This document shows, piece by piece, positions 1-29,690 of a DNA stretch of 64,000 nt (position 1 is its first letter; every line of letters starts with the position of its first letter). The notes under the pieces are model-generated. The model saw only the letters and a program-made list of their open reading frames with translations, was not told the origin of the DNA and searched no databases. The position numbers and the translations under genes are program-made. The stretch comes from Flavobacteriales bacterium. Lineage in GTDB: Bacteria; Bacteroidota; Bacteroidia; Flavobacteriales; UBA7312. The stretch spans positions 48,908 to 112,907 of the forward strand of contig JADHMQ010000003.1 in the NCBI GenBank assembly GCA_016779935.1. Reading direction: 5' to 3'.

Positions 1-2330
1 GCTCCTAGAGTTGCTAAGCTATTTATATAACCAGAAGAATCACCAAAACAATTTATCGTATCAGTATAATCAATAATACTAAGTTTAAAAGATGTAAAAT
101 CGTTTATATCAAATGATACGGTATCGGTACACATACTGTTATCTTCAACTTTTAAAACGTATGAAGTGTCATCAAGATTATCAATAATAAATTGATTGTT
201 TACATCTAAATTAACCGTTATAGGCTGATTATTTAACGTAAATGAAAAAGGTGGTGATATTCCTTCACTAAGTTCAAATTCCGCACTACCAAATAATGTT
301 TGACAATCTATATCCTCTACATTTAGAGTAATTAATTCAGGGGAAATTGGGTTTGTAACAATATTTGAAGTGATTTGACTCTTACAACCCAAAGAATCTG
401 TTACTTCAAAGACATATGTTCCAACTTGAAGGTCTATAAATTCATGAGGGTAATCGTAAGTAATCGTATCATTTACTATTCCAATGGAATAATCAGGGAT
501 ACCGCCACTAACATCAATTGTAACTTTTCCTAAACCTAATCCAACACATAATACATCTTGATGCAATGTAAAATCTTCAGATAAGTGTAGTTGAGGGTTT
601 TGATAGATACTAAATTGAACAGAATCAATACAAAGAACAGAATCAATTGCATTAATCTGATAATTTCCTGCTATTAAGTTTTGAAAGATAGTATCTGTTT
701 GAGTATATAAAAGTGTGTCGTTTCGTGAAATAGAATATTCTATTGGTCCAGTTGCACCAGATATACTAACTATAGCACTAGCTGTAGAATCACCATAGCA
801 CGTTAAAGTATCTGTTGTGTAAGAAGATAGACTCAAAACAAAATTCGAAGTACTCATTATATCAAACACCAATGTGTCTACACACAAGTTTGAATCCAAG
901 ACAGATAGCTCATAAGAATTTGGCAATAAATCAATAAGGCTAAAATCCCCAGTATTATTTAAAGTTATGTTTTGTAACGAATCGTTTAATTTAAATGTAT
1001 AATCTGCTACACCTCCTAAAAGTTGAAAATCAGCAGTACCAAATGGAGTTTGACAATTCGGGTTTGAAATATTTATGGGATTTAACATTAATTCATTTGG
1101 TTCAGTAATTTCAATATTCAAATATTTAGAGCAATTAAGACTATTAGTAATTTCAAATGAATAAATTCCGCTAACTAGACTATCAAAAATATGTGAATCA
1201 TTATATTTTAAAGTGTCGTTTAGCAAACCAACTTGATAAGGTGAGCCAATACCACTTATATCAAATCCAATTTCTCCTGAGCTATCTCCAAAACATAAAA
1301 TATTTTTATGCAATAATGAATCTTCATAAGCTAAAAAGTCAGGGTTCTGAAAAATATTTAATGCAACAGAATCTTGACAGCCATTTGTATCAGTTACAAA
1401 AACCTTATAATTACCTGCAGTCAATGAGCCAAAATAGTCACTAGTTTGGGAATAAAGTAATGTATCATTTTTAGAAATCTGGAAATTATATCCTGGAGTT
1501 CCACCAATCGCTGCAGTTTGAATAAATCCAGTTGAATCTCCAAAACAAACAATTGAATCTAAAGATGAAGTAATAGAGAATGATAATAAGGATGGCTCGA
1601 GAATTTGGAATGATTTGGAATAATAACATCCATTAACATCAAACACTTCAATAATATAAGAGTTTGGGAGTAGGTTATTAATAGTATAATAATCAAGTGA
1701 ATTAGGAGATAGATTTAGGGTGTCTCCATTTAAGCGAATAGTATACGATGGCGTACCACCAGCAATTTTGAAAGTTGCTTGACCAGAATTATCTCCAAAA
1801 CACAATATATTTTGAATATCTAATGAATCTATTTTTAAACTATCGGGTTGAGTAACATCAACAAGAGTAGAAACTGAACACATCCACTCGTCTAATAATT
1901 CAGCAGTATATTGATTTGAAGATAAACCGAAAATAGTATCAATTAAGTTATTTGAAATGTTGTTATATAGTTCGACCCCAAGAGAATCTCTTAAAATAAA
2001 ATGAGCTGTTGAAGACGAGGAGTCTGATGATAAAATTATATATGCATTACTATCACTATTACATACAAGGTTTGTATGATTTACATCTAAGATTGGCGAA
2101 TAGAAGTCAATACTAAAATCCAGAAAGCAATTTCCTAACTCTAAAACATAATTTGAGGATTGAGTAGGTGAAATTTCAATTACTGATGAATCTCCCAATG
2201 TTACAAAATTTTGGCCTACAACTCGATGCCATTCAACCACATAGTTACCACTTATAAATGGGCTAATATCAATATCAATTGAAGAGTCTGAGCTACATAA
2301 GGTATATACGCTCTTTATATAAGCTCCATT
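1..2330 (-). repeat. Tandem coding repeat modules of ~240-260 bp (~80-87 aa) inside the adhesin gene
   Basis: The conserved Cys codon of each unit sits at plus-strand positions 48, 303, 546, 798, 1053, 1293, 1545, 1800, 2061 and 2295, with spacings of 234-261 bp. The plus-strand signature ATC(T/A)CCAAAACA (= C-F-G-D on the minus strand) recurs at 39-50, 1284-1295, 1536-1547 and 1791-1802. Confidence 0.65.
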
Positions 2331-4154
2331 CGTGTTGGCTTGAATCAAATCAACGTAATCGTTTATAATAGAAATATGTACTGAATCAGAAACAGCAGGA
2401 CAACTATTAGAATCTAATGCTTCTACAAAAACGAATATATTCGAAGTATCTATAAGTAATTGTTGCCCAATAGTTCCATCAGTCCATTGATAGTTGGTGA
2501 ATCCAGAATCTGCAATTAGGTAGCTGTTTAAATCACAAGTTTGTGCAAAAAACAATCCATTAGTTAATTCGAAAATCAAACTAGTATCTCCGTTTAATGT
2601 TAAATTAATAAATGAACTACTTATTTCAATACTAATTAGTGTGTCAAAAATCACCTGAGAAACATCTGAGACTTCTAAGGTATAATCTCCCTCAGCCAAC
2701 TGAGAAATAGAGGTGTCGGTAGATGTGAAACCATTAGGCCCACTCCATAGAAAGGTGTACGAGTTAAGTGTTTGAACATCAAATAAAATTTGACCAGAAT
2801 TAGTGCCACTACAGGTATGTGTTACATCATAAGAATACGACTCCATAGGCGTAGTAAATGTGTAGGAAGAAGACCAGCCTTCAATACAATCTATCAAAGA
2901 ATTAGTTCTAACTTGCACTTCATAAGTCGTTGATGGAGAAAATCCTGAAATAGATTTACTAGACAACATTTCAGGAATATTATCATCAAAAATTCCAGAA
3001 GCTACAATTTGCCATGTTCCTCCTAATTCTCTGTATCTAAAGCGGTAGCCATCAACAGTAGAGTCGGCTTGCCAGTTTATCACAACTTCGAAAGGGGTAA
3101 GCCCTGTAAACCATAAAGTATCTGGAAGTGATGGCTCAGGAAAAACAAATACTGTATCGGACTTTTGACATCCTAATGAATCTTTTACTATCAAAGTATA
3201 AGAACCACTTGTCAATGAAGTGTACACGTTATCGGTTGAGAATAAACTGTTATTTACAGAATATTCATAAGGGGATAATCCTCCTGTTGAAGATATTTGT
3301 ATTTGACCGTCAGCTTGTTCTGGGCAACTAGCATCTGTAACGGTTGAAGAAATTGATAATGTATTACAAATTGTATCAACTAGTGTTACTGACACTTGAT
3401 CTTGTTCTGAAATAATAGACAGTAAATTTCCGCTTTGGTCGACATTCCATAACCTCAAGGAGGCTGTATATTCTCCTAATGGGGCTTCTGGATTAAACTG
3501 ATTAAATTTAACACGAACTGGCCGTACTCTTTCTTCTTCGCAATTGAGATTTTGACCACTTTGTCCACCCCAATACCCAACTGCATCGCCATTAGAATTA
3601 ATAGTGTATGGAATAACTTCCCATATAGATTGAGTATTAAAATACTCTATCGTAAAATCACCTTGTTCTAAAGGTTCTGATAGATGAGAAATTATAAACT
3701 CTGGCTTAAATGACACTTGACAACCAAGATTAGTCAGTTTTACATCACACTCAGTATAGGTGTTATAGCCTACTGGGTTAATATCAAACGGACTAGACAC
3801 TTCTAATTTTGCAGTGTCTGGATCACAGGAATAAGAAGTAAAAGTGTAAGAGGCCGAATCGGTGCAATTCTGAAACGTATCAGTTACAAACACCCAAATT
3901 GCTTGATTGGCTGGTAAAAAACTATTCGTAACAGAACTTGTTTGAGGCCCTCCAGGTAAGTTTCCTCCATTTTCATTTAACCATTGGTAAGTATAGAAAC
4001 CCGTTCCTCCTGAAACATTGGCTTGTAATTGCCCTCCGTTCAAACTGCCTGGACAATAGGGTTCAGATAAGACTTGAAAGTCAATCAGAACGCATTGAGA
4101 TAATGAAATAAAAGAGAAAAATAAAAAGAGAATAGAAAGAGAAAAATTCTTCAT
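1..4154 (-). CDS. Giant SprB-repeat cell-surface adhesin-like protein, N-terminal >=1384 codons; the 3' end lies beyond the left window edge
   Basis: Not in the ORF track because it is edge-truncated. I checked every in-frame minus-strand triplet from 4154 down to 3 and found no stop. The ATG is at 4154-4152, preceded by an in-frame TAA at 4166-4164. The N-terminus MKNFSLSILFLFFSFISLSQ looks like a signal peptide. The body has >=10 C-x-G-x-x-x-G...GG-x-x-x-Y units (ILCFGDSSGEIGFDISGIGSPY, IVCFGDSTGFIQTAAIGGTPGY, ASCPEQADGQIQISSTGGLSPYEY). These alternate with L-x-x-G-x-Y-x-x-x-V-x-D-x-x-G-C modules, as in SprB-type repeats. Confidence 0.8.
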   Translation of the reverse strand, partial: MKNFSLSILFLFFSFISLSQCVLIDFQVLSEPYCPGSLNGGQLQANVSGGTGFYTYQWLNENGGNLPGGPQTSSVTNSFLPANQAIWVFVTDTFQNCTDSASYTFTSYSCDPDTAKLEVSSPFDINPVGYNTYTECDVKLTNLGCQVSFKPEFIISHLSEPLEQGDFTIEYFNTQSIWEVIPYTINSNGDAVGYWGGQSGQNLNCEEERVRPVRVKFNQFNPEAPLGEYTASLRLWNVDQSGNLLSIISEQDQVSVTLVDTICNTLSISSTVTDASCPEQADGQIQISSTGGLSPYEYSVNNSLFSTDNVYTSLTSGSYTLIVKDSLGCQKSDTVFVFPEPSLPDTLWFTGLTPFEVVINWQADSTVDGYRFRYRELGGTWQIVASGIFDDNIPEMLSSKSISGFSPSTTYEVQVRTNSLIDCIEGWSSSYTFTTPMESYSYDVTHTCSGTNSGQILFDVQTLNSYTFLWSGPNGFTSTDTSISQLAEGDYTLEVSDVSQVIFDTLISIEISSSFINLTLNGDTSLIFELTNGLFFAQTCDLNSYLIADSGFTNYQWTDGTIGQQLLIDTSNIFVFVEALDSNSCPAVSDSVHISIINDYVDLIQANTNGAYIKSVYTLCSSDSSIDIDISPFISGNYVVEWHRVVGQNFVTLGDSSVIEISPTQSSNYVLELGNCFLDFSIDFYSPILDVNHTNLVCNSDSNAYIILSSDSSSSTAHFILRDSLGVELYNNISNNLIDTIFGLSSNQYTAELLDEWMCSVSTLVDVTQPDSLKIDSLDIQNILCFGDNSGQATFKIAGGTPSYTIRLNGDTLNLSPNSLDYYTINNLLPNSYIIEVFDVNGCYYSKSFQILEPSLLSFSITSSLDSIVCFGDSTGFIQTAAIGGTPGYNFQISKNDTLLYSQTSDYFGSLTAGNYKVFVTDTNGCQDSVALNIFQNPDFLAYEDSLLHKNILCFGDSSGEIGFDISGIGSPYQVGLLNDTLKYNDSHIFDSLVSGIYSFEITNSLNCSKYLNIEITEPNELMLNPINISNPNCQTPFGTADFQLLGGVADYTFKLNDSLQNITLNNTGDFSLIDLLPNSYELSVLDSNLCVDTLVFDIMSTSNFVLSLSSYTTDTLTCYGDSTASAIVSISGATGPIEYSISRNDTLLYTQTDTIFQNLIAGNYQINAIDSVLCIDSVQFSIYQNPQLHLSEDFTLHQDVLCVGLGLGKVTIDVSGGIPDYSIGIVNDTITYDYPHEFIDLQVGTYVFEVTDSLGCKSQITSNIVTNPISPELITLNVEDIDCQTLFGSAEFELSEGISPPFSFTLNNQPITVNLDVNNQFIIDNLDDTSYVLKVEDNSMCTDTVSFDINDFTSFKLSIIDYTDTINCFGDSSGYINSLATLG

Positions 4155-4178
4155 GATACAAGGGTTTTAAGAATAAAG

Positions 4179-4186
4179 CAAAGATA
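4179..4186 (-). promoter_or_regulatory. Candidate Bacteroidota sigma-A -7 box (TATCTTTG) for the adhesin gene
   Basis: Plus-strand CAAAGATA is TATCTTTG on the minus strand and matches TAnnTTTG. It lies 25 nt upstream of the ATG at 4154. I saw no clear -33 TTTG. Confidence 0.3.
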
Positions 4187-4202
4187 TAAAAAAGAAGACA
4201 AT

Positions 4203-5579
4203 CTAAACAGCATTTTTCTGAGTCTTGAAAAGGTTGACTATCGTTATAGAGATTAGTTTAACATCAAGCAATAAAGACCAATTTTCTATATACCAAACAT
4301 CGTATTTCACCCTATCTTCCATGTCTTTAATATTCTTTGTTTCGCCTCTAAAACCATAGGCTTGGGCAGCCCCAGTAATACCAGGAAATACGAGTTGCCT
4401 AACCATATATCCATCAATAATTTCAGAATAACTTTTAGTATGTTTTAACATGTGAGGCCTAGGCCCTACAACAGACATATTACCTATCAATGTGTTAAAG
4501 AACTGAGGCATTTCATCAATACTTGTTCTTCGTAAAAACCTGCCGAATTTTGTTATTCGTGGATCATCCTTGTACGCTTGTTTGACATCAGACAACTTAT
4601 TTAATGACATTGTCCTAAACTTATAACAGTCAAATTCTTTGTTATCTAATCCTGAACGCCTTTGAACAAAAAAGACTGGCCCCTTTGAAGTAAGCTTGAT
4701 TATCAAAGCTATTATTGGCGTTAACCATGATAAGATAAACACAATAACAAACAATGAAAATATGATATCGAATATTCTTTTTACGAACCTATTAAACTCA
4801 TCTTGTAAAGGCTCTTCTCTTAACGTAATAACGGGTATAACACCATACAAATCAATATTAATTTTTCGCTGTTTAAAGCTGGTAAAATCAGGTGTTATTT
4901 TAAGCCTAATCATATTATCATCACAAAATTTAATGATGCTCATTAGTAAACTTTCATCATAAATCGAATCAGAATAGAATATCTCCTCTACTCTATTATT
5001 TTTACAAAATTCATCTAATTCATCAATATGAAAACATGGGCAACTTAATTTCTGTGAAGAGGGTTTGGAGTAGAAGAATGCTTGAAGCTTATATCCATGC
5101 TCATTGTTTAGAAAAAATTGAGCGAGTTGGGTAGATTTTTCGGCAGCACCAACAATTACTATTTCTTTGTAATTATATCCAAGTCGCCTATATTTTTTAA
5201 TAAGAAAAACAGAAAATATTCTCCAAACAAATAGTATTAAATAACTCAGCCCAAAAGTATAATATAAATGGTCATAAGAAAAGGAGTTTGTTTTTAAAGA
5301 GAATAAAAGTGTAGAGATAATAAGAGCGTGAACAATTACTGCTTTTAATAAATTTGATAGTACTAATTCAAACCTAGAGGCTCGTTCGTAGTCAAATAAT
5401 CCAAAAAAGAACCCTAATAGCAACCAACTCAAGTTTACGATTATCAAAAGAAACAAGTATTTATCAGAAATATCAAGCGAAAAAAAAGTAATTCTGTAAG
5501 CCAACAAGAACGCAATGGTAAGGTGAAAAACATCACCAAAACTAAATAGCAAACGTAATTTTAATGCTTTAATATTCAT
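4203..5579 (-). CDS. Polyprenyl-phosphate glycosyl-1-phosphate transferase, large WbaP/WcaJ/WchA type (initiating transferase)
   Basis: 458 aa. It has an N-terminal multi-TM region followed by the bacterial sugar transferase block PVFFVQRRSG..YKFRTM..DPRITKFGRFLRRTSIDEMPQFFNTLIGNMSVVGPRPH. Confidence 0.85.
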   Translation of the reverse strand: MNIKALKLRLLFSFGDVFHLTIAFLLAYRITFFSLDISDKYLFLLIIVNLSWLLLGFFFGLFDYERASRFELVLSNLLKAVIVHALIISTLLFSLKTNSFSYDHLYYTFGLSYLILFVWRIFSVFLIKKYRRLGYNYKEIVIVGAAEKSTQLAQFFLNNEHGYKLQAFFYSKPSSQKLSCPCFHIDELDEFCKNNRVEEIFYSDSIYDESLLMSIIKFCDDNMIRLKITPDFTSFKQRKINIDLYGVIPVITLREEPLQDEFNRFVKRIFDIIFSLFVIVFILSWLTPIIALIIKLTSKGPVFFVQRRSGLDNKEFDCYKFRTMSLNKLSDVKQAYKDDPRITKFGRFLRRTSIDEMPQFFNTLIGNMSVVGPRPHMLKHTKSYSEIIDGYMVRQLVFPGITGAAQAYGFRGETKNIKDMEDRVKYDVWYIENWSLLLDVKLISITIVNLFKTQKNAV

Positions 5580-5638
5580 AAAAACTTGTTAAGAAAAGGC
5601 TAAATATAAATATAGTAAGAATCGTAACTAAATCAAAA

Positions 5639-6712
5639 TTAAATCAACAATTGCTCATACTGAGAGACTATTTTTGAATACTGATAATTATCGTTTATCT
5701 TTTTTGTATTGATTTTACACCAATTTAAGTGCTCAGTTTTATGGATTGAATTGACAATTTTAGTCACATCAAATTTTGAAATAAAATAAAACGCATGCTC
5801 CTGCAGTATTAATTTGTTAAACGAATTATCATGAGCACATATCAAACTACTTGAAGCCATTGCTTCTAATAAAGAAGGATTCGTTCCCCCAACAGTATGC
5901 CCATGAAAATACAAATTGGAATAATGTCTTAAATTGTTCAATAGGTCTATTGAAGAAACAAAACCCAAGAATATTATTCGAGAATCATTCACGTAAGTTT
6001 TTAATTCCTTACCTAAACTAGTATTCATATTGCCTACTACCACTAATTTTCTGGAAACATCTGAATCTAAAAAACCATCGATAATTGTTTTAACATTATT
6101 TTCTGGCTCAATTCGTGCAACAATCATATCATAAGCCTTAGGTTCTAATCCAAACCCCTCAAGGTATTTAATATTTGGAGAATTAAATACCGTTGCACCG
6201 TATGGAATAAATGTAGAGGAAACACAGTATTTTTCTTGAAGGTAATTTTTGATTCCAACAGAATCCGCTATTAATTTATCACTGTGTTTTACAGCTAATT
6301 TTTCAGCATACTTTAAATATAGCTTAGTAATTGAAGAATATTTAGTTCTTTTCCATTCTAAACCGTCCATATTAGTGACGAGCTTAATGTTATTTTTGAA
6401 TAAAAAATTCCAAATTGAGCTACTAGTATAACCTAATTGGAGAATAACATCAAAATCTCTTTTTCTAGAATCTAGAATACAATTTAAATCGTAAATAAAT
6501 TGACCAACTGTCCCAATCTTATATTCTGGATCAAAACAATGAATAATATTTACTTTTCTCCATTTTTTGTCCTTGAAAGGATGATTGTGCGAGTTGTAAA
6601 CATAGACATCGTGTCCTTGATTAGATAATCCATCAGACAAATATTCTGCAAATTGTTCGAACCCTCCGTAATTATTAGGGATTCCTCTAGTACCAATAAT
6701 GGCTAATTTCAT
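5639..6712 (-). CDS. GT-B glycosyltransferase (GT4/GT1, DUF1972-type N-terminus)
   Basis: 357 aa. MKLAIIGTRGIPNNYGGFEQFAEYLS is the typical DUF1972-type start. The C-terminal GGTNPSLLEAMA resembles the GT4 nucleotide-sugar binding region. Confidence 0.75.
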   Translation of the reverse strand: MKLAIIGTRGIPNNYGGFEQFAEYLSDGLSNQGHDVYVYNSHNHPFKDKKWRKVNIIHCFDPEYKIGTVGQFIYDLNCILDSRKRDFDVILQLGYTSSSIWNFLFKNNIKLVTNMDGLEWKRTKYSSITKLYLKYAEKLAVKHSDKLIADSVGIKNYLQEKYCVSSTFIPYGATVFNSPNIKYLEGFGLEPKAYDMIVARIEPENNVKTIIDGFLDSDVSRKLVVVGNMNTSLGKELKTYVNDSRIIFLGFVSSIDLLNNLRHYSNLYFHGHTVGGTNPSLLEAMASSSLICAHDNSFNKLILQEHAFYFISKFDVTKIVNSIHKTEHLNWCKINTKKINDNYQYSKIVSQYEQLLI

Positions 6713-6717
6713 TTCAG

Positions 6718-20060: not shown

Positions 20061-20063
20061 AAA

Positions 20064-20633: not shown

Positions 20634-21580
20634 AATTTACAAAATGGATGATAATCACCTTTTAAGCCAACTGGCGTAGAATTTCTTATATTATGAACAA
20701 TATCAATCGATGTTTTCGCTTCCATTAAGCCAAACCCATTACCTGCTAATACAGCCTCGTAACTCTTAGTGTGAAGATCTGTAAACCCTCCACTAAATTC
20801 AATCTCCTCACCTTCAACGGTTATCGACCTAAATGTTCTTTGCCCTGTAGCTTTGATGTGATCAGGGATTAAATCATAATTTACGCTTAGAAACCAACGT
20901 ACTCTAGCTCTTTCTAATTCTAAAAAACCAGCTGCCTTATCTTCATCAGAAACATGACATACATTCTGCTTGACAGAGCCAAAAATCCATGTCAACATAT
21001 CGTAAAAATGAATCCCAATATTTGTAGCTATACCACCTGACTTAGAAATATCTCCTTTCCAAGAAATGAAATACCACTTTCCTCTGCTTGTTAAATACGA
21101 TAAATCGATATCATAGATTTTATCTTTTGGTCCGTTTTCAACTTTTTCTTTAAGAGCGATAATTGAAGGGTGAAATCGAAGTTGAAGAATGTTGTTTATC
21201 CTTTTACCTGTTCGATGTTCTACTTCGGCTAAAGCATCAATATTCCAAGGATTTAAAACTAAAGGCTTCTCGCAGATAACGTCAGAGCCACTCCTTAAAG
21301 CTAAACGAATATGTGCATCATGCAGATAATTTGGTGAACATATACTGACATAATCAATTGGTGACTCTGAACGCCTTAGCTTATCTAAATGACGATCAAA
21401 TCTCTCTGGTTCAGTAAAAAAATTAGCTTCAGGGAAATAACTATCAATTATCCCTACACTATCAAATTTATCAAGTGCAACAGATAAATTGTTACCCGTA
21501 TCTTTAATCGCCTTCATATGCCTTGAAGCAATATATCCAGCTGCACCTATTAATGCAAAATTTTTCATCATAATCTCCAA
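20630..21580 (-). CDS. wbpB: UDP-N-acetyl-glucosaminuronate 3-dehydrogenase (WbpB-like, Gfo/Idh/MocA). The likely start is ATG 21571 or 21568, which gives an ATGA overlap with wbpA.
   Basis: MKNFALIGAAGYIASRHMKAIKDTGN..DYVSICSPNYLH..VICEKPLV..NILQLRFHPSIIALKEKV closely follows the WbpB pattern. The track start is a TTG four codons upstream. Confidence 0.85.
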   Translation of the reverse strand: MEIMMKNFALIGAAGYIASRHMKAIKDTGNNLSVALDKFDSVGIIDSYFPEANFFTEPERFDRHLDKLRRSESPIDYVSICSPNYLHDAHIRLALRSGSDVICEKPLVLNPWNIDALAEVEHRTGKRINNILQLRFHPSIIALKEKVENGPKDKIYDIDLSYLTSRGKWYFISWKGDISKSGGIATNIGIHFYDMLTWIFGSVKQNVCHVSDEDKAAGFLELERARVRWFLSVNYDLIPDHIKATGQRTFRSITVEGEEIEFSGGFTDLHTKSYEAVLAGNGFGLMEAKTSIDIVHNIRNSTPVGLKGDYHPFCKL

Positions 21581-22833: not shown

Positions 22834-22873
22834 AAAAAAAATATAAATAAAAGAGTCTTCAATTGAAGACTCT
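22834..22873 (-). terminator. Rho-independent terminator after gldN
   Basis: A perfect 22-nt palindrome AGAGTCTTCAATTGAAGACTCT sits at 22852-22873. On the minus strand it is followed by TTTATTTATATTTTTTTT, and it lies 24 nt after the gldN stop. Confidence 0.6.
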
Positions 22874-22896
22874 AAAGTTTAAATCAAAAAAAAGTA

Positions 22897-23754
22897 TTAA
22901 TACTCCCAAAGATCGTGTTCGATATTGAATATCTCTTCCTTTATTTTTTCAGCCTCAAGCAAAGCATCAATACCTTCTTTATACTCTGATATTTTTCTGT
23001 CATATTTATTTGACTCCTTGACAATTCGACTACTGAAAAATCGCTTGTGAAAAATATCGTCATAAGTTAAACGAGCTGCATCATTTTTTCTGTGATTGAA
23101 AACTTCAGCTTTAGAAAGAATTTTTCTTGCTTCAGGAAAATACACCCAAAATAATGAGGTTTCACCAGTATAAACACCTTCTTCATTTTTACGGTCAATA
23201 ACCGGACATATTCCAATGATTCTAACTTCCATTACAGAACGTTGCTTGTCAAAAAACCATTCCTCTTTGATTCTATATTTCTTAACCTCATGTCTCTCAA
23301 AAATATTAAAAGTTGTATCTAAATAATATTCTTGCGTATCAGGGTCAAATCGTTCTTCAACAGACATTTTCTCGCCTTGCATAATACCAATCATCTCAAC
23401 TTCTGAAGGTGACATCGGAGATTGAAATTCATCATCGTTGGTTGCATTACCGTAAGCTGTAATTGTCCCTTCATCAATTGCTTGCATAAGCACATCAATT
23501 AAATTCTGACGGTCATTTATTGGTAAAAGAGGGTAATAGAATACCTGATTCATTTTCTCTCTTAAATCAATGATTCTTTCGATTTTTGTAGACCACATTA
23601 CATCTGCCTCGCGAACATGTTGATATGGCTGAATCATTCTTTCTTTTCCGCCATCACGAATATCTTTTTCATATGCACCGTCAAGAATGTCTTGCGCGGA
23701 TACAATCTGTGAAAAACATATCAATGAAATAATTACTAAAACAATATTTTTCAT
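22897..23754 (-). CDS. gldN: Gliding motility / T9SS protein GldN
   Basis: 285 aa with a signal peptide. PYQHVREADVMWSTKIERIIDLREKMNQVFYYP is the conserved GldN block, and the gene lies directly after gldM. Confidence 0.85.
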   Translation of the reverse strand: MKNIVLVIISLICFSQIVSAQDILDGAYEKDIRDGGKERMIQPYQHVREADVMWSTKIERIIDLREKMNQVFYYPLLPINDRQNLIDVLMQAIDEGTITAYGNATNDDEFQSPMSPSEVEMIGIMQGEKMSVEERFDPDTQEYYLDTTFNIFERHEVKKYRIKEEWFFDKQRSVMEVRIIGICPVIDRKNEEGVYTGETSLFWVYFPEARKILSKAEVFNHRKNDAARLTYDDIFHKRFFSSRIVKESNKYDRKISEYKEGIDALLEAEKIKEEIFNIEHDLWEY

Positions 23755-23764
23755 AATAATAGAT

Positions 23765-25429
23765 TTAATTTACGGTAAGCTTTACAGATGGCAACGACTT
23801 AGGCGCACCGTCTGGTCCCTTACATGTAATATTAGTAAAATAAATAACAGAACCAATCTGAAGTGATTCAAATAAGGTTTTCATTTCACCAGTAACCTTG
23901 TTTCCTTTGGCATACTTGGTAACTAACTCACCTCTTTGTGTAACATCAACAGAGAAACCTGTGATACTATATCTAATGTCAAAAACGAAATTACTTAACT
24001 CTGCATATAACTTAGCATTATTAGAAAGTAATTGGCTTTTCTTAATTTTTTGGTTCTTAGACCCTAAAAATTTTGGCTCTGGCTTAGGAGTTCTCATTAC
24101 TCTAAATTCGAGAGAGCCCATATTACGTCTTTTCCCATCAACTTCTGCAACTACATTAACTTTTGCACTACCTGTTTTCTTTGGGAAAACTTCCCATCCG
24201 CCACCAGCTACTTTTTTAACAACACCATTATCACAAGAAACGCTAATTTTATCTTTAGGTACACCAGGAACTGAAACGTCTATTGGGTTTCCAAGTGCAC
24301 CATTCTTTAGTGGGTGACTTGCTAAAATGTAAAATACATTCATCTTAGTTGGCGAGATAACTAAACTTGGTTTAGCAACTTGGTATTCACCATTAAAAGG
24401 GTAAATTTTATCACCAACATCTGTTTTCATAGATATTAAACCACCCCATTTCTTGTATCCTTGTGATGAGGTTTTAACAGCATATTTTCCTTTACCAGCT
24501 AGAACAGGTATAGAATCATAATCTCCAACCATTTTATACTTACCATCCTCACCAAGTTCATAATCTCCAACATAAATAATTGGGTTTTGGGTAGTATCCT
24601 TTGCTGCTAAAAATACATCTGCCTTAAAAGAGTCACCTAAAAACACATAGTTAGAAGTAGCAATTTGTATAGCATCAGCAGAAGTAAACTTTAAAGAACC
24701 TGCATCAATTTCTTGTTGTAAAAACTTAATAACATCCGACTCTGCGTTTCTTACATCTGTTTGTATTTTTGATAATATGGTAACAGCAGCAATAAGCGGC
24801 ATATCTTGAAAGTTTTGTTGCACCCAAGATAACATTCCTGAACCATATTTTTCTTTTCTTTCTTCAAATGTAAAAGTTGTAGATAATGACGATTGAATAG
24901 ATGGTTCATTTACCATTTCTTTCAAGAAGTCTCTGTATGCCTCCAAACTTTCTTGTAGAATTGCTCCATTACCTTTATTAATCATTAACTCCCCTGGTCT
25001 TTCTCTATCTTTTTTACTAATGACATCTACCATTAGTTTTTTCTTCTGAGCTGCTGATAAATCATCATATGTAACATCTTCTAATGGCTCTTCACCTTCG
25101 AAAGTAACTTGCTTATCTGAAAGCATTACCATATCAAATTTGAGCCTCTGAATGTCATCGACAATTTTGTCTGCTTTAGCCTTTACACTAAAAGCCTTGT
25201 CACGCCATGGACCAGCTTTAGCTTCGTTTGTCTCAGCTGCAGAAACAAATGAAGAATATACTTCATCATTTTTACTATTGAAATTTTGGGTTGTTTTTAC
25301 AATCCCACCATTAATTTTTTGAAAGGCATCAAGAACTTCTTTGGATACATTTAATGCTAACATTGCTGTTAGCACCAAATACATCATACCAATCATCTTT
25401 TGCCTTGGCGATAAATTATTTCCTGCCAT
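23765..25429 (-). CDS. gldM: Gliding motility / T9SS protein GldM (PorM)
   Basis: 554 aa. The N-terminus MAGNNLSPRQKMIGMMYLVLTAMLALNVSKEVLDAF is the canonical GldM start with a single TM. Confidence 0.9.
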   Translation of the reverse strand: MAGNNLSPRQKMIGMMYLVLTAMLALNVSKEVLDAFQKINGGIVKTTQNFNSKNDEVYSSFVSAAETNEAKAGPWRDKAFSVKAKADKIVDDIQRLKFDMVMLSDKQVTFEGEEPLEDVTYDDLSAAQKKKLMVDVISKKDRERPGELMINKGNGAILQESLEAYRDFLKEMVNEPSIQSSLSTTFTFEERKEKYGSGMLSWVQQNFQDMPLIAAVTILSKIQTDVRNAESDVIKFLQQEIDAGSLKFTSADAIQIATSNYVFLGDSFKADVFLAAKDTTQNPIIYVGDYELGEDGKYKMVGDYDSIPVLAGKGKYAVKTSSQGYKKWGGLISMKTDVGDKIYPFNGEYQVAKPSLVISPTKMNVFYILASHPLKNGALGNPIDVSVPGVPKDKISVSCDNGVVKKVAGGGWEVFPKKTGSAKVNVVAEVDGKRRNMGSLEFRVMRTPKPEPKFLGSKNQKIKKSQLLSNNAKLYAELSNFVFDIRYSITGFSVDVTQRGELVTKYAKGNKVTGEMKTLFESLQIGSVIYFTNITCKGPDGAPKSLPSVKLTVN

Positions 25430-25463: not shown

Positions 25464-26090
25464 TTATTTATTGCTCATTGCGTTAAGCATATTCGCATAC
25501 ATTTTGTTAAGCGCTTCTAAATTAGCACCCAACTTAGATATTTCTGATTGGAATTTCTCAGAGTCACCAACAGAGTTACCCATATTTTGCATTGTCTTAA
25601 GTTGCAAATCATAGTATGTGTTCATTTCAGCTAATTTTCTAGCTGCTTCACGCATTTGGTCACTGTAATCTCCTGTAGCAGAAACAGCATCCATTGATTT
25701 ATTTACACCTTCAACAGTTTCATTAAATGATCTTAAGTTATCTCCTAATCGAGTAATAAGAGCTTGATCAACATTTGCTTTTCCAAGCATATCATCCAGT
25801 TCTTGAACAGGAGTATTTTTCTTAGAAGACGAAGATTTATCATCTGGATCTTTCATATATGCCAATTCTGGATATACTAAACTCCAATCCGGATCTTCGT
25901 GTGGTTTTTCAAAAGCAGAAAAGAAGAAAATTATTGCTTCTACAGTAAGACCAATAGTTAACATGGCTCCTGCTCCTGTCCAGTGTTGTAGCTTAAATAA
26001 TGCACCAAGGATTACAATAGCAGCACCAAACCCATACAGCTTGGCCATGTTATTTTTAAATTTCTTTGAATTGGGGTTGATTAATGCCAT
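25464..26090 (-). CDS. gldL: Gliding motility / T9SS protein GldL (PorL)
   Basis: 208 aa. It has two N-terminal TM helices (KLYGFGAAIVILGALFKLQHW; MLTIGLTVEAIIFFFSAFE) followed by a helical tail. Confidence 0.9.
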   Translation of the reverse strand: MALINPNSKKFKNNMAKLYGFGAAIVILGALFKLQHWTGAGAMLTIGLTVEAIIFFFSAFEKPHEDPDWSLVYPELAYMKDPDDKSSSSKKNTPVQELDDMLGKANVDQALITRLGDNLRSFNETVEGVNKSMDAVSATGDYSDQMREAARKLAEMNTYYDLQLKTMQNMGNSVGDSEKFQSEISKLGANLEALNKMYANMLNAMSNK

Positions 26091-26124: not shown

Positions 26125-27444
26125 TTATCTAAAATCTACTTTATCTCTACCTAAGAAAGAAATCACGTTTCTAAACCCGATATATGATTTAGCCGTATCT
26201 TGAAATTCATAATCTCTTGTTCCTACTTGTATGAAGTGAGAAATATCTTTCCAAGAACCACCACGAATAACCTTTCTCTTTAAAATTTGAGGGTCGGAAT
26301 CCTGAGCGTCGTAGTTGAAATCCATATTCATATCGTGAGAGAAATTAAATGCTGACTCATCATAAGCATTACTTGTCCACTCTGAAACGTTACCAGCCAT
26401 ATCGTACAATCCAAAGTTATTCGGATTATAAGATGCAACCTTTACTGTTTTGATACCACCATCGGCTACATAGTTACCTCTCCTTGGCTTGAAGTTAGCA
26501 AGAAAACAACCTACCTCGTTGGTAGTATAAGGCCCTCCCCATGGATATGGCGATAAATCAAAACCACCTCTGGCTGCGTACTCCCACTCTGTTTCTGAAG
26601 GAAGACGAAACTCATCATGTAAAGGCTCTTCTCTTTCGATTAAATATTTATCAAGAATACTTGTTCTCCATTTTGAAAAAGCTACAGCCTGCTTCCAACT
26701 AACACCCACGACTGGGTAATCATCAAATGCTGGATGATGGAAATAATTTCTTGACCAAGGGTCATTGTACGAATAGGTATAATCCGAAGTCCAAACTAGT
26801 GTGTCTGGGAAAATATTAATTTCAGGTTTTTCAATGAAGACTGATCTGTCTTTTTTACCTTGAGCTTTATTTTCTCTAGAAGATGCACGCTGAATATCAA
26901 CATCTTCAAATCTAAAGTTATATTTTCTAGTATCAAATTCTCTTCTTGAATAGAATCTTTCGTGTTCTGGCAAATACATTTCATCCTCAAGAACTTCACG
27001 AACCTCAGTGTCATCCCATCTAATAGATCTACTCCAATCAATGTGAGGTGGGTCAATAAAGTTACCGTAGTCATCCTCTTCTATGAGTTCATAACCTTCG
27101 ACACCATTTTCTCCTAGTATAACTCTAGCGATTGAATCTCTAACCCACTCAACAAATTGTCGGTATTCATTATTTGTAATTTCAGTTTCATCAATGTAGA
27201 ATGCTGCTACAGAAACTGTTTTGTGTTGCGTTACATGAGCATAAGGAACATCTTGGTCACCAGGTCCCATGTTAAAACTTCCCTGAGGAATAAATACCAT
27301 TCCGTAAGGGTCAGTTGGATTCCAGATAGGTCTATTCTGAATACCTATCAGTTCGCCATTACCAGAAGTAGAGCAACTTGCCAATACTACTGCGACGAAT
27401 CCAAAGACAAATAAATTTTTCATAATACTTTTATTTTGCCTCAA
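26125..27444 (-). CDS. gldK: Gliding motility / T9SS lipoprotein GldK (PorK, FGE-sulfatase fold). The likely start is ATG 27423.
   Basis: It has the lipobox MKNLFVFGFVAVVLASC followed by PYGMVFIPQGSFNMG, plus SUMF1-like motifs (GNVSEWT; RGGSW). The track start at 27444 is a TTG. Confidence 0.9.
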   Translation of the reverse strand: MRQNKSIMKNLFVFGFVAVVLASCSTSGNGELIGIQNRPIWNPTDPYGMVFIPQGSFNMGPGDQDVPYAHVTQHKTVSVAAFYIDETEITNNEYRQFVEWVRDSIARVILGENGVEGYELIEEDDYGNFIDPPHIDWSRSIRWDDTEVREVLEDEMYLPEHERFYSRREFDTRKYNFRFEDVDIQRASSRENKAQGKKDRSVFIEKPEINIFPDTLVWTSDYTYSYNDPWSRNYFHHPAFDDYPVVGVSWKQAVAFSKWRTSILDKYLIEREEPLHDEFRLPSETEWEYAARGGFDLSPYPWGGPYTTNEVGCFLANFKPRRGNYVADGGIKTVKVASYNPNNFGLYDMAGNVSEWTSNAYDESAFNFSHDMNMDFNYDAQDSDPQILKRKVIRGGSWKDISHFIQVGTRDYEFQDTAKSYIGFRNVISFLGRDKVDFR

Positions 27445-27475: not shown

Positions 27476-27527
27476 AAAATCACCACTTAAAAAAGTGATG
27501 ATTTTACTTTGGAAAGCAACAAATATA
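27476..27527 (-). promoter_or_regulatory. Candidate -7 box (TATATTTG, 27527-27520) followed by a 13-bp stem-loop (27505-27476) between porP-like and gldK
   Basis: Plus-strand CAAATATA at 27520-27527 is a minus-strand TAnnTTTG. The hairpin AAAATCACCACTT/AAGTGATGATTTT has one mismatch and a 4-nt loop. It could be a gldK 5' leader structure or the porP terminator. Confidence 0.35.
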
Positions 27528-27533: not shown

Positions 27534-28514
27534 TTATAGATATCTAGGGTTTTTAAATCCTTTGACAACCTTGTTATAATCTATTTTAAAGCAATATCCC
27601 AACATAAATTCAAAGCTTCCAGATGTAGAAACGTTTGTAGTAGGAATATCGTATGAGAATCCAAATTTCAAATCATCGTTGATGTGCATACCGAGTAATA
27701 GTACTGCACGGGAACTAGGTCTATATGTAACTCCACCCCACAACTTTTTATTGTATTCGAGTATTGAAGTTAAGTCTAGAGTAGTTGTAACTCCCTCTGT
27801 TTTAACAAGTAAGGAGGGTTTTACATCAATTTTTGGATTTAATTCGTGAACGTATCCAGCCGTTAAATAATAATGCCTTTTAACGTCAAATATATCTAAA
27901 GAGGTGGTAATTGTTGGCTCATTTATGTGCTTAGATGATAAGCCAACATAAACCTTATCGGAGTTAAAAAATAAACCAGCTCCTAGGTCAAAGCTTGAAC
28001 CTTTTTCAGTTGAAGTTGGTATGGAAGGGTCTGGATTTTCAGTGATTATGCCACTTCCGTCTAAACCGTCTTGCATTACACCAACAGAAACACCAATTCC
28101 AAGTTTACCACCAGCGACATCAAATCTGTAAGCGTAAGAAAGATTCAGAGATAAAAATTCGTTTTGACCAATTTTATCAGTAAGTATATTTAGACCTACA
28201 CCACCATGCAATAATTGTAATGGGGATTGAACTGACAAGTTAGTTGTTACAGGAGCATCTTCAAAACCAACCCACTGAGAACGGTGAAGAGCCGTAGCAC
28301 ATATTGCTTCCTCATATCCAGACGATCCAGGGTTAAACGATAGATTGTTAAAGATATATTGACTAAATTGAGGATCTTGCTGCGCTTTAGAATGAAAAGC
28401 AAGAGTAAACAACAAGAAAAGCAAAAAATATTTTTTCATAAAAGGTAACGACAAAACGTTTATCACAATTAATATTCGGCTAAAATAACTATTTTTTTTT
28501 AGTAGAAAAAGCAA
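27534..28514 (-). CDS. PorP/SprF-family T9SS outer-membrane beta-barrel protein. The likely start is ATG 28439.
   Basis: MKKYFLLFLLFTLAFHSKAQQDPQFSQYIFNNLSFNPGSSG is the typical PorP/SprF start. The body has an alternating beta-strand pattern and ends FKNPRYL. Confidence 0.8.
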   Translation of the reverse strand: MLFLLKKNSYFSRILIVINVLSLPFMKKYFLLFLLFTLAFHSKAQQDPQFSQYIFNNLSFNPGSSGYEEAICATALHRSQWVGFEDAPVTTNLSVQSPLQLLHGGVGLNILTDKIGQNEFLSLNLSYAYRFDVAGGKLGIGVSVGVMQDGLDGSGIITENPDPSIPTSTEKGSSFDLGAGLFFNSDKVYVGLSSKHINEPTITTSLDIFDVKRHYYLTAGYVHELNPKIDVKPSLLVKTEGVTTTLDLTSILEYNKKLWGGVTYRPSSRAVLLLGMHINDDLKFGFSYDIPTTNVSTSGSFEFMLGYCFKIDYNKVVKGFKNPRYL

Positions 28515-28535: not shown

Positions 28536-29690
28536 TTAATTCATTTTCTGAAACGCTTTCCACCATCTTTCGGGAACATCACCCTTAACCGCTTGCTTGT
28601 AATCTGAATAAGAACAAGGGATAAAATAACCCTCATCGATTGATTTTGCATTATTATTTAGCAAAGGTATCTCCATCCACCATTTATTCATTTTTTTGTT
28701 TTTGAAAAAACATGCATTATACTCGCCATCTCTCATGGAAACGTGGTATTTTGCCATATCTTTATCAGTGGGTTTAAATGTTTTCATCTTATGAAAAAAC
28801 CCATCAAAGAAACACCATATCATTTGTGAAATAAGCTTTGCTGTTTTAGAACTATCGTCATTATTTGAATCATAATGATAAATCCCCAAGGATTTTATTC
28901 GGCCACTTATTCCAGCATAGCGCATTATCTGACAAATCTCTTCAGAATAAAAACCGTTTGGTGAACCATCATCATTGGCAGGAGAATCTGACAATCGAAC
29001 ACTATTCATATCAATTGACACTAAATCGGCATTACGTAATATGGGTTCCACTTCCTCTAAATCTCGTCTAATCTCTCCTAATCTAAAGGCGTCAAAATAC
29101 AAGTCGTTTATCAACTTTACAGAGGTTTGAGGATTTAAGTAAGACTGATAGCCAATGTTAGAAAAATTAAACAACACATTAGGCTTAGAGTTTATTATTT
29201 CTGAAAGATAAGAATTTGAAGATTTGGCATTTTTAACAAGCCCTAAATCTAATCTTGAATCGACACTCACTATATTAGATAATTTACCCAATTGTTTACA
29301 TGAATTGTATTGCGCTATCGTCAAATCTTGTGTACCTCCTATAACAAGAGAAAACAAATTACGATGTTCGCATTCAGTCAAAACATCAGCTAACAACTGG
29401 TAAGTGTCTGTTATTTTTTCGCCAAGCACTAAATTACCTAAGTCAGCAATTCTTAATCGCTCTGGACCTTCAAATAGTTCATATAACTCTAACCTAATTT
29501 TTTCGAAATTTTCAGACGAGTTTTCAATAGAATTCCCTCGGTATTCTGGCACGCAGAATATAACTAAATCAGCTTCTGAAAGGTTAGGGAAATTTCCTTG
29601 AGTGTAAGCCATAACTTGATTACCTAGCTGAGCGGCTTGATAATCATTCTCATCATGAGAAATCGGACTAAAACTCAATTCAAATTCCAT
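28536..29690 (-). CDS. Arginase/formiminoglutamase-fold protein with degenerate metal-ligand motifs
   Basis: 384 aa. Ureohydrolase-like spacing is retained with altered motifs: VIGGTQD at residues 117-122 (versus GGDHS), VDSRLD at 143-148 (versus DAHxD), and SIDMN at 225-229 (versus SxDxD). The ATG directly abuts the topA stop. Confidence 0.65.
   Translation of the reverse strand: MEFELSFSPISHDENDYQAAQLGNQVMAYTQGNFPNLSEADLVIFCVPEYRGNSIENSSENFEKIRLELYELFEGPERLRIADLGNLVLGEKITDTYQLLADVLTECEHRNLFSLVIGGTQDLTIAQYNSCKQLGKLSNIVSVDSRLDLGLVKNAKSSNSYLSEIINSKPNVLFNFSNIGYQSYLNPQTSVKLINDLYFDAFRLGEIRRDLEEVEPILRNADLVSIDMNSVRLSDSPANDDGSPNGFYSEEICQIMRYAGISGRIKSLGIYHYDSNNDDSSKTAKLISQMIWCFFDGFFHKMKTFKPTDKDMAKYHVSMRDGEYNACFFKNKKMNKWWMEIPLLNNNAKSIDEGYFIPCSYSDYKQAVKGDVPERWWKAFQKMN

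Follow-up and report, generated by a model that had tools for sequence, protein, structure and literature searches.

The 64-kb stretch of DNA analyzed here (the window) comes from a MAG of an uncultured marine Flavobacteriales bacterium and contains 25 consecutive minus-strand genes, running from topA (29691-32000) down to an adhesin gene (1-4154) that continues beyond the window edge. They form three units side by side: a T9SS core block, an 18.7-kb Wzx/Wzy-type glycan locus, and the SprB-repeat adhesin gene. Gene content was assigned by homology, and conservation and variability were assessed by comparison of related loci; the features are as follows.

29691-32000, minus strand: topA, DNA topoisomerase I (Pfam Topoisom_bac, Toprim, Toprim_C_rpt), first gene of a deeply conserved block
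28536-29690, minus strand: arginase/ureohydrolase-fold protein, formimidoylglutamase-like, below cut-offs (PF00491, 44 bits; hutG, 51.6 bits vs. a cut-off of 229)
27534-28514, minus strand: PorP/SprF-family T9SS outer-membrane protein (PF11751, 240 bits; TIGR03519, 261 bits vs. a cut-off of 90.55)
26125-27444, minus strand: gldK, T9SS motor/ring core (TIGR03525, 570 bits)
25464-26090, minus strand: gldL, T9SS motor/ring core (Pfam GldL_N)
23765-25429, minus strand: gldM, T9SS motor/ring core (four GldM domains in Pfam)
22897-23754, minus strand: gldN, T9SS motor/ring core (Pfam GldN)
22834-22896, minus strand: gldN-wbpA intergenic gap (63 nt) with an intrinsic-terminator-like stem-loop at 22852-22873
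21568-22833, minus strand: wbpA, UDP-GlcNAc 6-dehydrogenase-like (TIGR03026, 396 bits, above cut-off; TviB, 554 bits vs. a cut-off of 592)
20630-21580, minus strand: wbpB (PDB 3oa2, E=7e-113, full length)
20064-20633, minus strand: wbpD (WbpD/WlbB; PDB 3mqg, E=2e-57, full length)
18975-20060, minus strand: wbpE (PDB 3nu7, E=9e-118, full length)
18096-18971, minus strand: candidate Wzz/PCP-like chain-length regulator, 291 aa (PF02706, 21.9 bits, below the cut-off of 25.5)
17043-18044, minus strand: SDR nucleotide-sugar 4-epimerase-like enzyme, 333 aa (Pfam Epimerase, GDP_Man_Dehyd)
15766-17043, minus strand: Wzx, MOP-family flippase (PF13440, 101.8 bits, cut-off 23; PF01943, 53.7 bits, cut-off 28.2)
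14503-15714, minus strand: Wzy_C-domain membrane protein, O-antigen polymerase or ligase type (PF04932, 31.5 bits vs. a cut-off of 31.7)
13172-14512, minus strand: polytopic membrane protein, second Wzy-like candidate, strain-specific (9-10 predicted TM segments)
12296-13168, minus strand: GT2 glycosyltransferase (PF00535)
11052-12299 from its ATG start, minus strand: soluble orphan protein (no TM segment)
10268-11059, minus strand: GT2 glycosyltransferase (PF00535)
9688-10275, minus strand: PglC-like small phosphoglycosyl transferase (PF02397, 202 bits)
8570-9688, minus strand: PglE/LegC-like sugar aminotransferase (PF01041, 316 bits; LegC family, 386 bits vs. a cut-off of 420)
6718-8577, minus strand: PglF/WbpM-like membrane-anchored UDP-GlcNAc 4,6-dehydratase (PF02719, 412 bits)
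5639-6712, minus strand: GT4/DUF1972 glycosyltransferase (DUF1972, 92 bits)
4203-5579, minus strand: WbaP/WcaJ-type large initiating phosphotransferase (TIGR03023 WcaJ equivalog, 440 bits vs. a cut-off of 410.75)
4155-4202, minus strand: wbaP-adhesin gap with a Bacteroidota -7-type promoter box, TATCTTTG, at 4179-4186 (sequence motif)
1-4154, minus strand: SprB-repeat adhesin, N-terminal 1,384 of 2,336 aa (signal peptide, five SprB repeats, fn3)

The number and order of the genes and the gaps of 63 and 48 nt agree, by ORF map and measured distances, with an earlier sequence-only reading of this region. The non-overlapping gaps are 0, 21, 89, 34, 34, 10, 63, 3, 3, 51, 51, 3, 5, 59, and 48 nt, so that the earlier description of tiny gaps or overlaps of 1-10 bp holds only roughly: six gaps measure 48-89 nt and the overlaps 1-13 nt. 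An apparent 46-nt overlap is an artefact of a TTG-extended ORF; the 415-aa call in a 99.7%-identical MAG reduces it to 4 nt. The window is 99.7% identical to locus L084 over 14 kb.

The array had also been described as unbroken, and this is not supported. The single hairpin reported between gldN and wbpA is real, with a 9-bp stem, a 4-nt loop, and a T-rich tail (MFE -13.4 kcal/mol, z=-4.9; matched by none of 200 shuffled sequences), and is the best terminator-like site on the minus strand within 4000-23900. Every clade examined has a canonical terminator after gldN; at the same position, hairpins with a T-run but differing stem sequences were found in L004-L007, L012, L013, L017, L018, and L042. 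The putative -7-type box before the adhesin lies ~25 nt from its ATG and appears to serve as the adhesin's own promoter, and the same box occurs 25-60 nt upstream of several other window genes. Because of this terminator and this box, the array would be split, with the three blocks as separate transcription units. Further TAnnTTTG boxes were found upstream of topA (32034-32041) and of the Wzy_C-domain gene (15732-15739), and a predicted promoter box, TATATTTG, lies in the porP-gldK gap (27520-27527).

The T9SS core block is ancient. Its genes (topA, the arginase-fold gene, porP, and gldKLMN) have the same order in 55 of the 59 Bacteroidota loci compared, and in related loci the arginase-fold gene always separates topA from porP. 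All five genes of the core operon porP-porK-porL-porM-porN are present in order on one strand, and the earlier assignments of porP/sprF and gldKLMN, ending at 22897, are borne out by the domain matches listed above.

Both ends of the glycan locus are conserved. By homology, wbpA-B-D-E (18975-22833) at its 5' end would direct synthesis of UDP-2,3-diacetamido-2,3-dideoxy-glucuronic acid. All four enzymes of this Wbp/Wlb pathway for UDP-GlcNAc3NAcA were found, as previously called, and are 74-91% identical in L004-L007. A WbpI-type 2-epimerase (manno form) was not detected, since no PF02350 protein occurs in the window, whereas L085, L086, L088, and L092 have one. At the 3' end (4203-8577), identities in L085, L086, L088, and L090 are 69-78% for the WbpM-like protein, 60-66% for the DUF1972 enzyme, and 54-68% for WbaP, and this gene order is kept next to every adhesin orthologue examined. 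The earlier calls of a PglF/E/C-like trio, of glycosyltransferases (the two GT2 genes and the GT4/DUF1972 gene), and of a WbaP-like gene are thereby upheld by Pfam and TIGR03023.

Between the conserved flanks lies a strain-variable center of lower GC (0.29-0.32 per gene vs. 0.33-0.37 in the flanks), as in serotype loci. Six middle genes lack homologues in L004-L007, L085, L086, L088, and L090; by the identity table, the strain-specific genes include the SDR epimerase-like gene, the Wzy_C-domain gene, and the GT2/orphan/GT2 stretch (10268-13168). The Wzx call is sound (~12 hydrophobic segments), and identity to the Wzx of relatives is only 43-45%, against 71-97% for GldN. Other earlier labels in this region have weaker family matches. 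The Wzz-like candidate falls short of the family cut-off, but its topology, with one N-terminal and one C-terminal TM segment around a long soluble middle, fits PCP-1, and homologues of 36-37% identity occur elsewhere within the loci of relatives. Similarly, the Wzy_C protein named ligase-like scores just under its cut-off and has 10-11 hydrophobic segments; it may be a polymerase or a WaaL-type ligase. The second Wzy-like candidate, the lowest-GC part of the locus, has 9 hydrophobic segments but no Pfam or NCBIfam match. For the enzyme labeled uronate 4-epimerase-like, the PDB matches (5u4q, 1e-120; 6zl6, 2e-51, of the 6zl6/6zla epimerase group; WbgU; WbpP) fit that label without proving it. 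The orphan protein gave no family match at E<=1 beyond noise, and its AF2 single-sequence model is unusable (pLDDT 40). The PglC-like and PglE-like proteins (8570-10275), judged by their families, are the initiator pair of the variable unit. This pair is retained in L088 and replaced by a Glycos_transf_4 (WecA/WbpL-like) initiator in L085, L086, L090, L092, and L093.

The adhesin starts 48 nt past wbaP, as reported. Its C-terminal T9SS sorting domain lies beyond the window edge and was read from the full-length, 99%-identical P0121, in which the CTD is of type A (PF18962, 47 bits; TIGR04183, 44 bits vs. a cut-off of 23). On these domain matches, the adhesin is a real T9SS cargo, in agreement with the earlier proposal of a giant SprB-repeat cargo protein. 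Among the marks of SprB-type gliding adhesins, the SprB repeats are present; a type B CTD and a cognate SprF/PorP-like gene downstream are not, the downstream gene encoding a 535-aa TPR protein. A second gene for type A CTD cargo was found in the window at 49441-51150.

As judged from sequence comparison, this three-part layout is conserved in one uncultured marine Flavobacteriales lineage, in which the order gldN, wbpABDE, variable middle, WbpM-like, DUF1972 glycosyltransferase, WbaP, adhesin, TPR recurs while identity declines from 97 to 67% for GldN and from 99 to 30% for the adhesin. The gldN-wbpA adjacency is thus no single-strain accident. Among 66 loci compared, only 13 carry glycan genes in the 3 kb that follow gldN; the others examined, 48 loci, have mixed housekeeping genes there. 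A sister clade has two tandem glycan loci after gldN, without wbpB/D/E; its DUF1972 gene belongs to the second of these, itself a full polysaccharide locus that has wzx and Wzy_C genes of its own. Relatives of the window have other cassettes in this position, with GT4 genes, WecA/WbpL-like initiators, and an Epimerase_2 gene; two wzx and two Wzy_C genes are present in some of them. For the relative with 90% GldN identity, L096 and L085 together give the complete locus, which runs wbpABDE, wzx, wzx, GT4, Wzy_C, Wzy_C, wzz-like, GT4, Epimerase_2, GT4, WbpL-like, WbpM-like; we take this to be the P. aeruginosa O5 B-band layout. Because relatives carry this O5-like set of a WbpI-like epimerase, GT4 enzymes, and WbpL-like and WbpM-like proteins, the gene content suggests that the repeat unit simply includes the Wbp sugar.

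Some features of the region sit uneasily with an ordinary polysaccharide locus. Its three-part synteny over such divergence exceeds expectation for unrelated neighbors; the parts conserved, the Wbp pathway and WbaP, have functions in P. gingivalis that are specific to A-LPS (PMC7468200, PMC13086638); and WbaP also lies directly after gldN in one distant lineage (L042).

Taken together, the region 4203-22833 is very probably the main Wzx/Wzy-dependent surface-polysaccharide locus (O-antigen or capsule type) of this bacterium. Its chromosomal site is fixed in this lineage, flanked by the ancient topA-arginase-fold-porP-gldKLMN block and by the conserved gene for a type A CTD adhesin. The locus encodes two initiating polyprenyl-phosphate glycosyl-phosphate transferases, PglC-like and WbaP/WcaJ, and a MOP-family Wzx flippase. 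The chemistry and the glycan destination (LPS or capsule), like the transcription structure, are what we infer. WbpA, WbpB, WbpE, and WbpD would, by family, produce UDP-GlcNAc3NAcA, and the strain-specific SDR 4-epimerase may modify a uronate. The PglF-like and PglE-like enzymes would form a 4-amino-4,6-dideoxy-HexNAc that the PglC-like transferase loads onto undecaprenyl phosphate; the unit would then be extended by the GT2 enzymes, flipped by Wzx, and polymerized by a Wzy-like protein, with chain length set by the Wzz-like protein. The second, conserved initiator (WbaP/WcaJ type) and the adjoining DUF1972 glycosyltransferase would build a second lipid-linked glycan. Since the locus has no Wza/Wzc export genes, an O-antigen is favored over a capsule; the product may be lipid A-core-attached, capsular, or protein-linked.

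Among the closest known systems are the O-antigen clusters of P. aeruginosa O5 (B-band) and of the Bordetella band-A type, which use the Wbp/Wlb pathway and share with the window the full WbpA-B-D-E set (the top PDB matches being characterized WbpB, WlbB, and WbpE), the Wzx/Wzy/Wzz-type architecture, the distal WbpM-like dehydratase, and conserved flanks around a variable center; relatives of the window also share the WbpI-like epimerase, GT4 pairs, and WbpL-like initiator. Unlike these clusters, the window combines a PglC/PglE-type initiator pair and GT2 enzymes with the lack of a WbpI-like 2-epimerase, contains an extra WbaP/WcaJ initiator and the DUF1972 glycosyltransferase, and has its locus flanked by T9SS core genes and a gene for T9SS cargo. 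Bacteroides fragilis capsule loci (PSA locus) end in WcfR/WcfS, an aminotransferase and a small initiating transferase for an amino-dideoxy-hexose. Loci of this type resemble the window in placing a PglE-like aminotransferase beside a PglC-like small phosphoglycosyl transferase, with no adjoining PglD-type acetyltransferase; they differ in that the window shows no UpxY/UpxZ regulators or invertible promoter and has extra Wbp and WbaP modules. The Flavobacterium johnsoniae SprB/sprCDBF system likewise includes a giant T9SS-secreted surface protein of SprB repeats, but the CTD of the window adhesin is of type A (PF18962/TIGR04183), not type B, and a TPR gene, not an sprF-like gene, follows it. 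In F. johnsoniae, type A CTDs lead to static anchoring or release rather than gliding-track loading (PMC12618676).

The sequence-only reading had proposed a dedicated cargo-anchor glycan module in a gliding Flavobacteriia, gliding being presumptive for a source represented by an uncultured MAG. A dedicated or dual-use anchor analogous to A-LPS seems unlikely here, although several features recall the P. gingivalis A-LPS/A-linking-saccharide system (Wbp/Vim pathway, WbaP, GtfC, GtfF, VimF, PorS, Wzy, WzzP, WaaL). The window shares with it the Wbp pathway, a WbaP-family initiator, Wzx, Wzy-like and Wzz-like genes, and type A CTD cargo, the class that P. gingivalis links to A-LPS; its genes are clustered and adjoin gldKLMN, unlike those of P. 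gingivalis. Under such a scheme, the Wbp pathway with the WbaP and DUF1972 frame would build an invariant linker oligosaccharide capping a strain-variable O-polysaccharide, and a PorU-type sortase would join type A cargo, the neighboring adhesin included, to it. For such cargo, no covalent anchoring route other than LPS conjugation is known (PMC9143113), and the adhesin has a TPR neighbor in place of an SprF/PorP partner. The two initiators of the window imply two lipid-linked units and, with its two Wzy-like genes (two wzx and two Wzy_C in relatives), match the P. gingivalis model of 2026, where a WbaP-initiated A-LS caps a WbaQ-initiated O-PS (PMC13086638). Synteny with gldKLMN and the adhesin is kept across the lineage, and LPS-dependent anchoring extends beyond Bacteroidales, since 67% of CTD proteins are mislocalised in an O-antigen ligase mutant of Cytophaga hutchinsonii (PMC11611037). 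However, in P. gingivalis the Wbp product becomes the linking sugar through VimA, VimE, and VimF, its free amine coming from VimA (FemAB-like aminoacyl transferase) and VimE (CE4 deacetylase). No homologue of these or of WbpS was found in the locus, elsewhere in the window, or in the related cassettes examined; for VimA and VimE there was no family match in the locus or related cassettes, nor among the window ORFs scanned (most of at least 100 aa, up to 58.6 kb). The DUF1972 enzyme belongs to GT4 and is not homologous to the GT2 enzyme GtfC (PMC7755767), the sister clade retains the position without wbpB/D/E, the O5-like cassettes point to a repeat-unit role for the Wbp sugar, and a terminator separates the gld genes from the locus. 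PorU, PorV, PorZ, and PorQ homologues are absent from the 64-kb window, A-LPS was not found in Flavobacterium, and there is no biochemical evidence of a cargo-glycan linkage for any Flavobacteriia (PMC9950754). The conserved adjacency and type A cargo thus stand, while the dedicated module is unproven given the missing Vim and Por homologues, and nothing shows the sugar to be a dedicated anchor for secreted proteins. By that reading's own standard, the hypervariable O-antigen cassette in the middle (identity table, GC) speaks against a dedicated unit.

Far less probable still is that WbaP and the DUF1972 enzyme serve general protein O-glycosylation of the Bacteroides lfg-like kind, decorating the adjacent adhesin rather than LPS or capsule. 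Such glycosylation is widespread in Bacteroidota (reviewed in PMC11611037), the pair invariably adjoins the adhesin gene, and no dedicated polymerase is assigned to it; but the pair adjoins the WbpM-like gene and the remainder of the Wzy/Wzz-containing locus just as closely, the sister-clade DUF1972 gene lies within a full polysaccharide locus, and neither an oligosaccharyltransferase nor an lfg-like gene set was seen at the glycan locus.

The ORF map of the window agrees with the array described in the sequence-only reading: 25 successive genes lie on the minus strand, from topA to the adhesin gene that leaves the window at position 1. Their spacing is as tight as had been described overall, although six gaps measure 48–89 nt; an apparent overlap of 46 nt was rejected as an artefact of a TTG-extended ORF. 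The features concerned are as follows.

1–4154, minus strand: SprB-repeat adhesin gene, cut by the window edge
4203–22833, minus strand: glycan locus
11052–12299, minus strand: orphan gene within the glycan locus
27480–27502, minus strand: hairpin in the porP–gldK gap
28536–29690, minus strand: arginase/ureohydrolase-fold gene
29691–32000, minus strand: topA
32184–35274, plus strand: genes divergent from topA
49441–51150, minus strand: gene of a second type A CTD protein

Nearly all of the gene names proposed from the sequence were borne out by Pfam, NCBIfam, and PDB searches. Pfam and NCBIfam support the identities of PorP/SprF, GldK, GldL, GldM, and GldN, and family searches identify a WbpA/TviB-type UDP-GlcNAc 6-dehydrogenase, Wzx, two GT2 genes, a PglF/E/C-like trio, and a GT4/DUF1972 transferase. 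PDB matches were obtained for WbpB (3oa2, E=7e-113), WbpD/WlbB (3mqg, E=2e-57), and WbpE (3nu7, E=9e-118), and the PDB relatives of the "uronate 4-epimerase-like" gene are compatible with that assignment. The WbaP-like protein exceeds the WcaJ equivalog cut-off. The Wzz-like, Wzy_C, and second Wzy-like assignments are weak and based mostly on membrane topology. Rfam and tRNA scans of the window gave no matches. At the DNA level, the window is 99.7% identical to CBFHUG010000001.1 (marine Flavobacteriales MAG GCA_965658975.1) and 99.97% identical to one contig of GCA_016777425.1. The description of the organism as gliding is an assumption, because the source organism is uncultured.

The conservation of the array was assessed in 80 GTDB species-representative loci collected with GldN as the anchor. 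The genes topA, the arginase-fold gene, porP, and gldK-L-M occur on the same strand and in the same order in 55 of the 59 loci with enough upstream sequence, and this conservation breaks off 3' of gldN. A same-strand glycan gene within 3 kb after gldN was found in only 13 of 66 loci, namely four of the window's own clade (GldN 71–97% identical), eight of a sister clade (about 50–53%), and the distant locus L042. The first two ORFs past gldN in the other 48 loci are mixed housekeeping genes (e.g., Der GTPase, ABC transporters, and LytB). The idea that glycan genes recurrently follow gldN in distant Bacteroidota was rejected, as the 94 downstream ORFs from these 48 loci represent housekeeping functions, with Der GTPase as the top family (7 members). 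Judged by gene order, gldN closes an ancient T9SS block.

Several further observations concern this block and its surroundings. The arginase-fold gene falls below the cut-offs for every named enzyme; it lies between topA and porP in the same 55 of 59 Bacteroidota loci, a position as conserved as those of the T9SS core genes (loci L004–L083), and a literature search found no role described for such a gene beside porP. Tandem gldO-like paralogues of gldN occur in many distant lineages (L010, L011, L015, L019, L020, L059, L063, L066, L067, L070, L075, and L082), with two copies in most and three in L066; the window's clade has one. In L042 (10847–15628; a distant Bacteroidota MAG, GldN 48% identical), gldN is followed by a terminator, a WbaP-family gene, and two proteins of ~530 aa without a Pfam family. 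The plus-strand genes divergent from topA encode a MiaB-like radical SAM methylthiotransferase and a sigma-54-dependent activator, both of which are likewise encoded beside topA in the related loci L001 and L096, as well as LptE (LPS assembly).

A gene-by-gene identity comparison with relatives' loci divides the glycan locus into constant ends and an exchangeable middle.

Table. Identity of the window's glycan-locus products to those of relatives' loci
wbpA-B-D-E: 74–91%
WbpM/PglF-like: 69–78%
DUF1972 transferase: 60–66%
WbaP: 54–68%
Wzx: 43–45%, including the relative with 97% GldN identity
Wzz-like: 36–37%
Epimerase, Wzy_C, second polytopic protein, both GT2s, soluble orphan: no homologue in relatives' loci

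The GC content is lowest in the middle genes (0.29–0.32 vs. 0.33–0.37 in the flanks), and elsewhere in the lineage the site is occupied by other cassettes. The complete locus of a relative with 90% GldN identity, obtained from L096 plus L085, contains wbpABDE, two wzx, GT4, two Wzy_C, wzz-like, GT4, Epimerase_2, GT4, a WecA/WbpL-like initiator, WbpM-like, DUF1972 GT, and WbaP. From wbpABDE through the WbpM-like gene, this order corresponds to that of the B-band cluster of P. aeruginosa O5, in which the Wbp sugar is an ordinary member of the repeat unit. Constant ends with a swapped middle are, in comparative terms, typical of O-antigen or capsule loci that determine serotype. The sequence-only reading had set its dedicated module against a hypervariable O-antigen cassette; by its identities and the alternative cassettes, the middle of the locus is of the latter kind.

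The soluble orphan (415 aa) of the variable middle has neither a family match nor a homologue in related cassettes, and AlphaFold2 without alignment gave an unusable model (pLDDT 40). In L005, a relative with 88% GldN identity, only a wbpA remnant of approximately the first 40 residues is present (10871–11074), directly followed by wbpB; this could be a genuine loss of the first step in the Wbp pathway or an error of assembly.

After gldN in the sister clade come a terminator and genes for a WbpA-like dehydrogenase, a Wzz-like protein, another sugar dehydrogenase, a flippase, a polymerase, glycosyltransferases, and PglC/E/F; these are followed by gpsA, beyond which lies a further complete polysaccharide locus with a DUF1972 gene among its members. 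WbpB, WbpD, and WbpE were not found at these loci; therefore, the family-level constant is the presence of surface-polysaccharide loci downstream of gldN and not that of the Wbp pathway there. The second of the tandem loci split by gpsA carries sulfotransferase or NeuB/CMP-sugar genes along with the DUF1972 transferase in L094 and L095.

The region beyond the left edge of the window was read through the adhesin orthologue P0121 (an exact look-up of the window's WbaP gave no match). This protein of 2,336 aa is 99% identical to the window adhesin, is encoded on the near-identical MAG contig, and has a T9SS sorting domain of type A at its C-terminus (PF18962, 47 bits; TIGR04183, 44 bits). Further orthologues, at 55, 46, 43, 39, and 30% identity, are all encoded directly after the WbpM-like, DUF1972 GT, and WbaP genes; by this placement, the adhesin gene is part of the conserved frame. 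Downstream, in place of an SprF-like gene, lies one for a TPR protein of 535 aa that has a signal peptide, and then come convergent pheT and recG. The TPR protein gene (17071–18678 in L084, the near-identical relative, just past the window's left edge) is always 3' of the adhesin in this lineage, and its product may act with the adhesin as a partner or chaperone. The second type A CTD protein of the window has 569 aa (PF18962, 54 bits), and its N-terminal part has no recognisable family.

Predicted transcription signals subdivide the array. The hairpin in the 63-nt gldN–wbpA gap (9-bp stem, 4-nt loop, T-rich tail, z=-4.9) is the top terminator-like site on that strand across 20 kb. A hairpin with a T-run directly past the gldN stop codon recurs in L042 and in both the near and the sister clade, with stem sequences that vary between clades, as expected of a functional intrinsic terminator; this is most likely the end of the gldKLMN operon. 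The 48-nt gap ahead of the adhesin gene contains TATCTTTG, which fits the -7 consensus of Bacteroidota (TAnnTTTG) and lies some 25 nt upstream of the ATG; boxes of this type also precede topA, gldK, the Wzy_C gene, and several unrelated window genes. The consensus is not enriched across the window (90 sites vs. 96 expected), and its placement 25–60 nt upstream of start codons is the only aspect from which we infer promoters; a sigma-70 scan was uninformative (102 sites vs. 100 expected). The adhesin gene probably has its own promoter, and the three blocks are probably transcribed separately. The hairpin in the porP–gldK gap has a 10-bp stem followed by TTTGTGG and lies just downstream of a TATATTTG box, in the would-be gldK 5' leader; it may serve as a terminator for porP or as a structured element of that leader.

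The locus is most likely an ordinary surface-polysaccharide locus of the Wzx/Wzy type that varies from strain to strain; within a single lineage of uncultured marine Flavobacteriales, its position between the T9SS core operon and the gene of a type A CTD adhesin is fixed. The dedicated cargo-anchor module proposed from the sequence, akin to the A-LPS system of P. gingivalis, is in our judgment unlikely, although the conserved synteny, the type A cargo, and the presence of two initiators lend it partial support. In P. gingivalis, cargo is amide-linked to 2-N-seryl-3-N-acetylglucuronamide, which is made by WbpA/B/E/D together with the deacetylase VimE, the aminoacyl transferase VimA, and the non-essential WbpS (PMC7468200). 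According to a 2026 model, this linking sugar sits on a single WbaP-initiated pentasaccharide, made by WbaP, GtfC, GtfF, and VimF, which caps an ordinary O-polysaccharide initiated by WbaQ (PMC13086638). The window shares with this system the Wbp pathway, a WbaP-family initiator, Wzx, Wzy-like and Wzz-like proteins, and cargo of type A, here adjacent and in conserved synteny; moreover, the two initiators and two Wzy-like genes of the window, and the two flippases of its relatives, parallel the two-unit model. However, no VimA-, VimE-, VimF-, or WbpS-like genes were found in the locus, the related cassettes examined, or the other window ORFs scanned (most of those of at least 100 aa up to 58.6 kb), so that the module would lack its defining Vim functions, and PorU, PorV, PorZ, and PorQ are absent from the 64-kb window. 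The DUF1972 enzyme, which has no relative with a solved structure, was rejected as a GtfC homologue, since it belongs to GT4 whereas GtfC belongs to GT2.

A specific form of anchoring, which we regard as quite improbable, is that the frame (WbpA-B-D-E and WbpM-like, DUF1972 glycosyltransferase, WbaP) makes an invariant linker resembling the A-LPS linking saccharide that caps the strain-variable O-polysaccharide, to which a PorU-type sortase would attach type A CTD cargo, e.g., the 2,336-aa adhesin. If true, this would be the first A-LPS-like anchoring in Flavobacteriia, genomically consolidated with the T9SS core, and its linking chemistry would dispense with VimA/VimE, e.g., via the free 4-amino group of the PglE/PglF sugar.

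Literature searches that combined gldN with either wbpA or an O-antigen cluster turned up no account of the adjacency, which by itself is a lineage-specific fact of gene order and not a new kind of system. CTD protein retention was reported to be LPS-dependent in Cytophaga hutchinsonii (PMC11611037), A-LPS was not found in Flavobacterium (PMC9950754), and type A CTDs of F. johnsoniae lead to static surface anchoring or release (PMC12618676). For the surface retention of type A CTD cargo outside Bacteroidales, this lineage brings together a small set of candidate genes beside gldKLMN, namely those of the Wbp pathway, WbaP, and an adhesin of type A; if the anchor link is real, the locus would indicate where to seek the anchor in Flavobacteriia.
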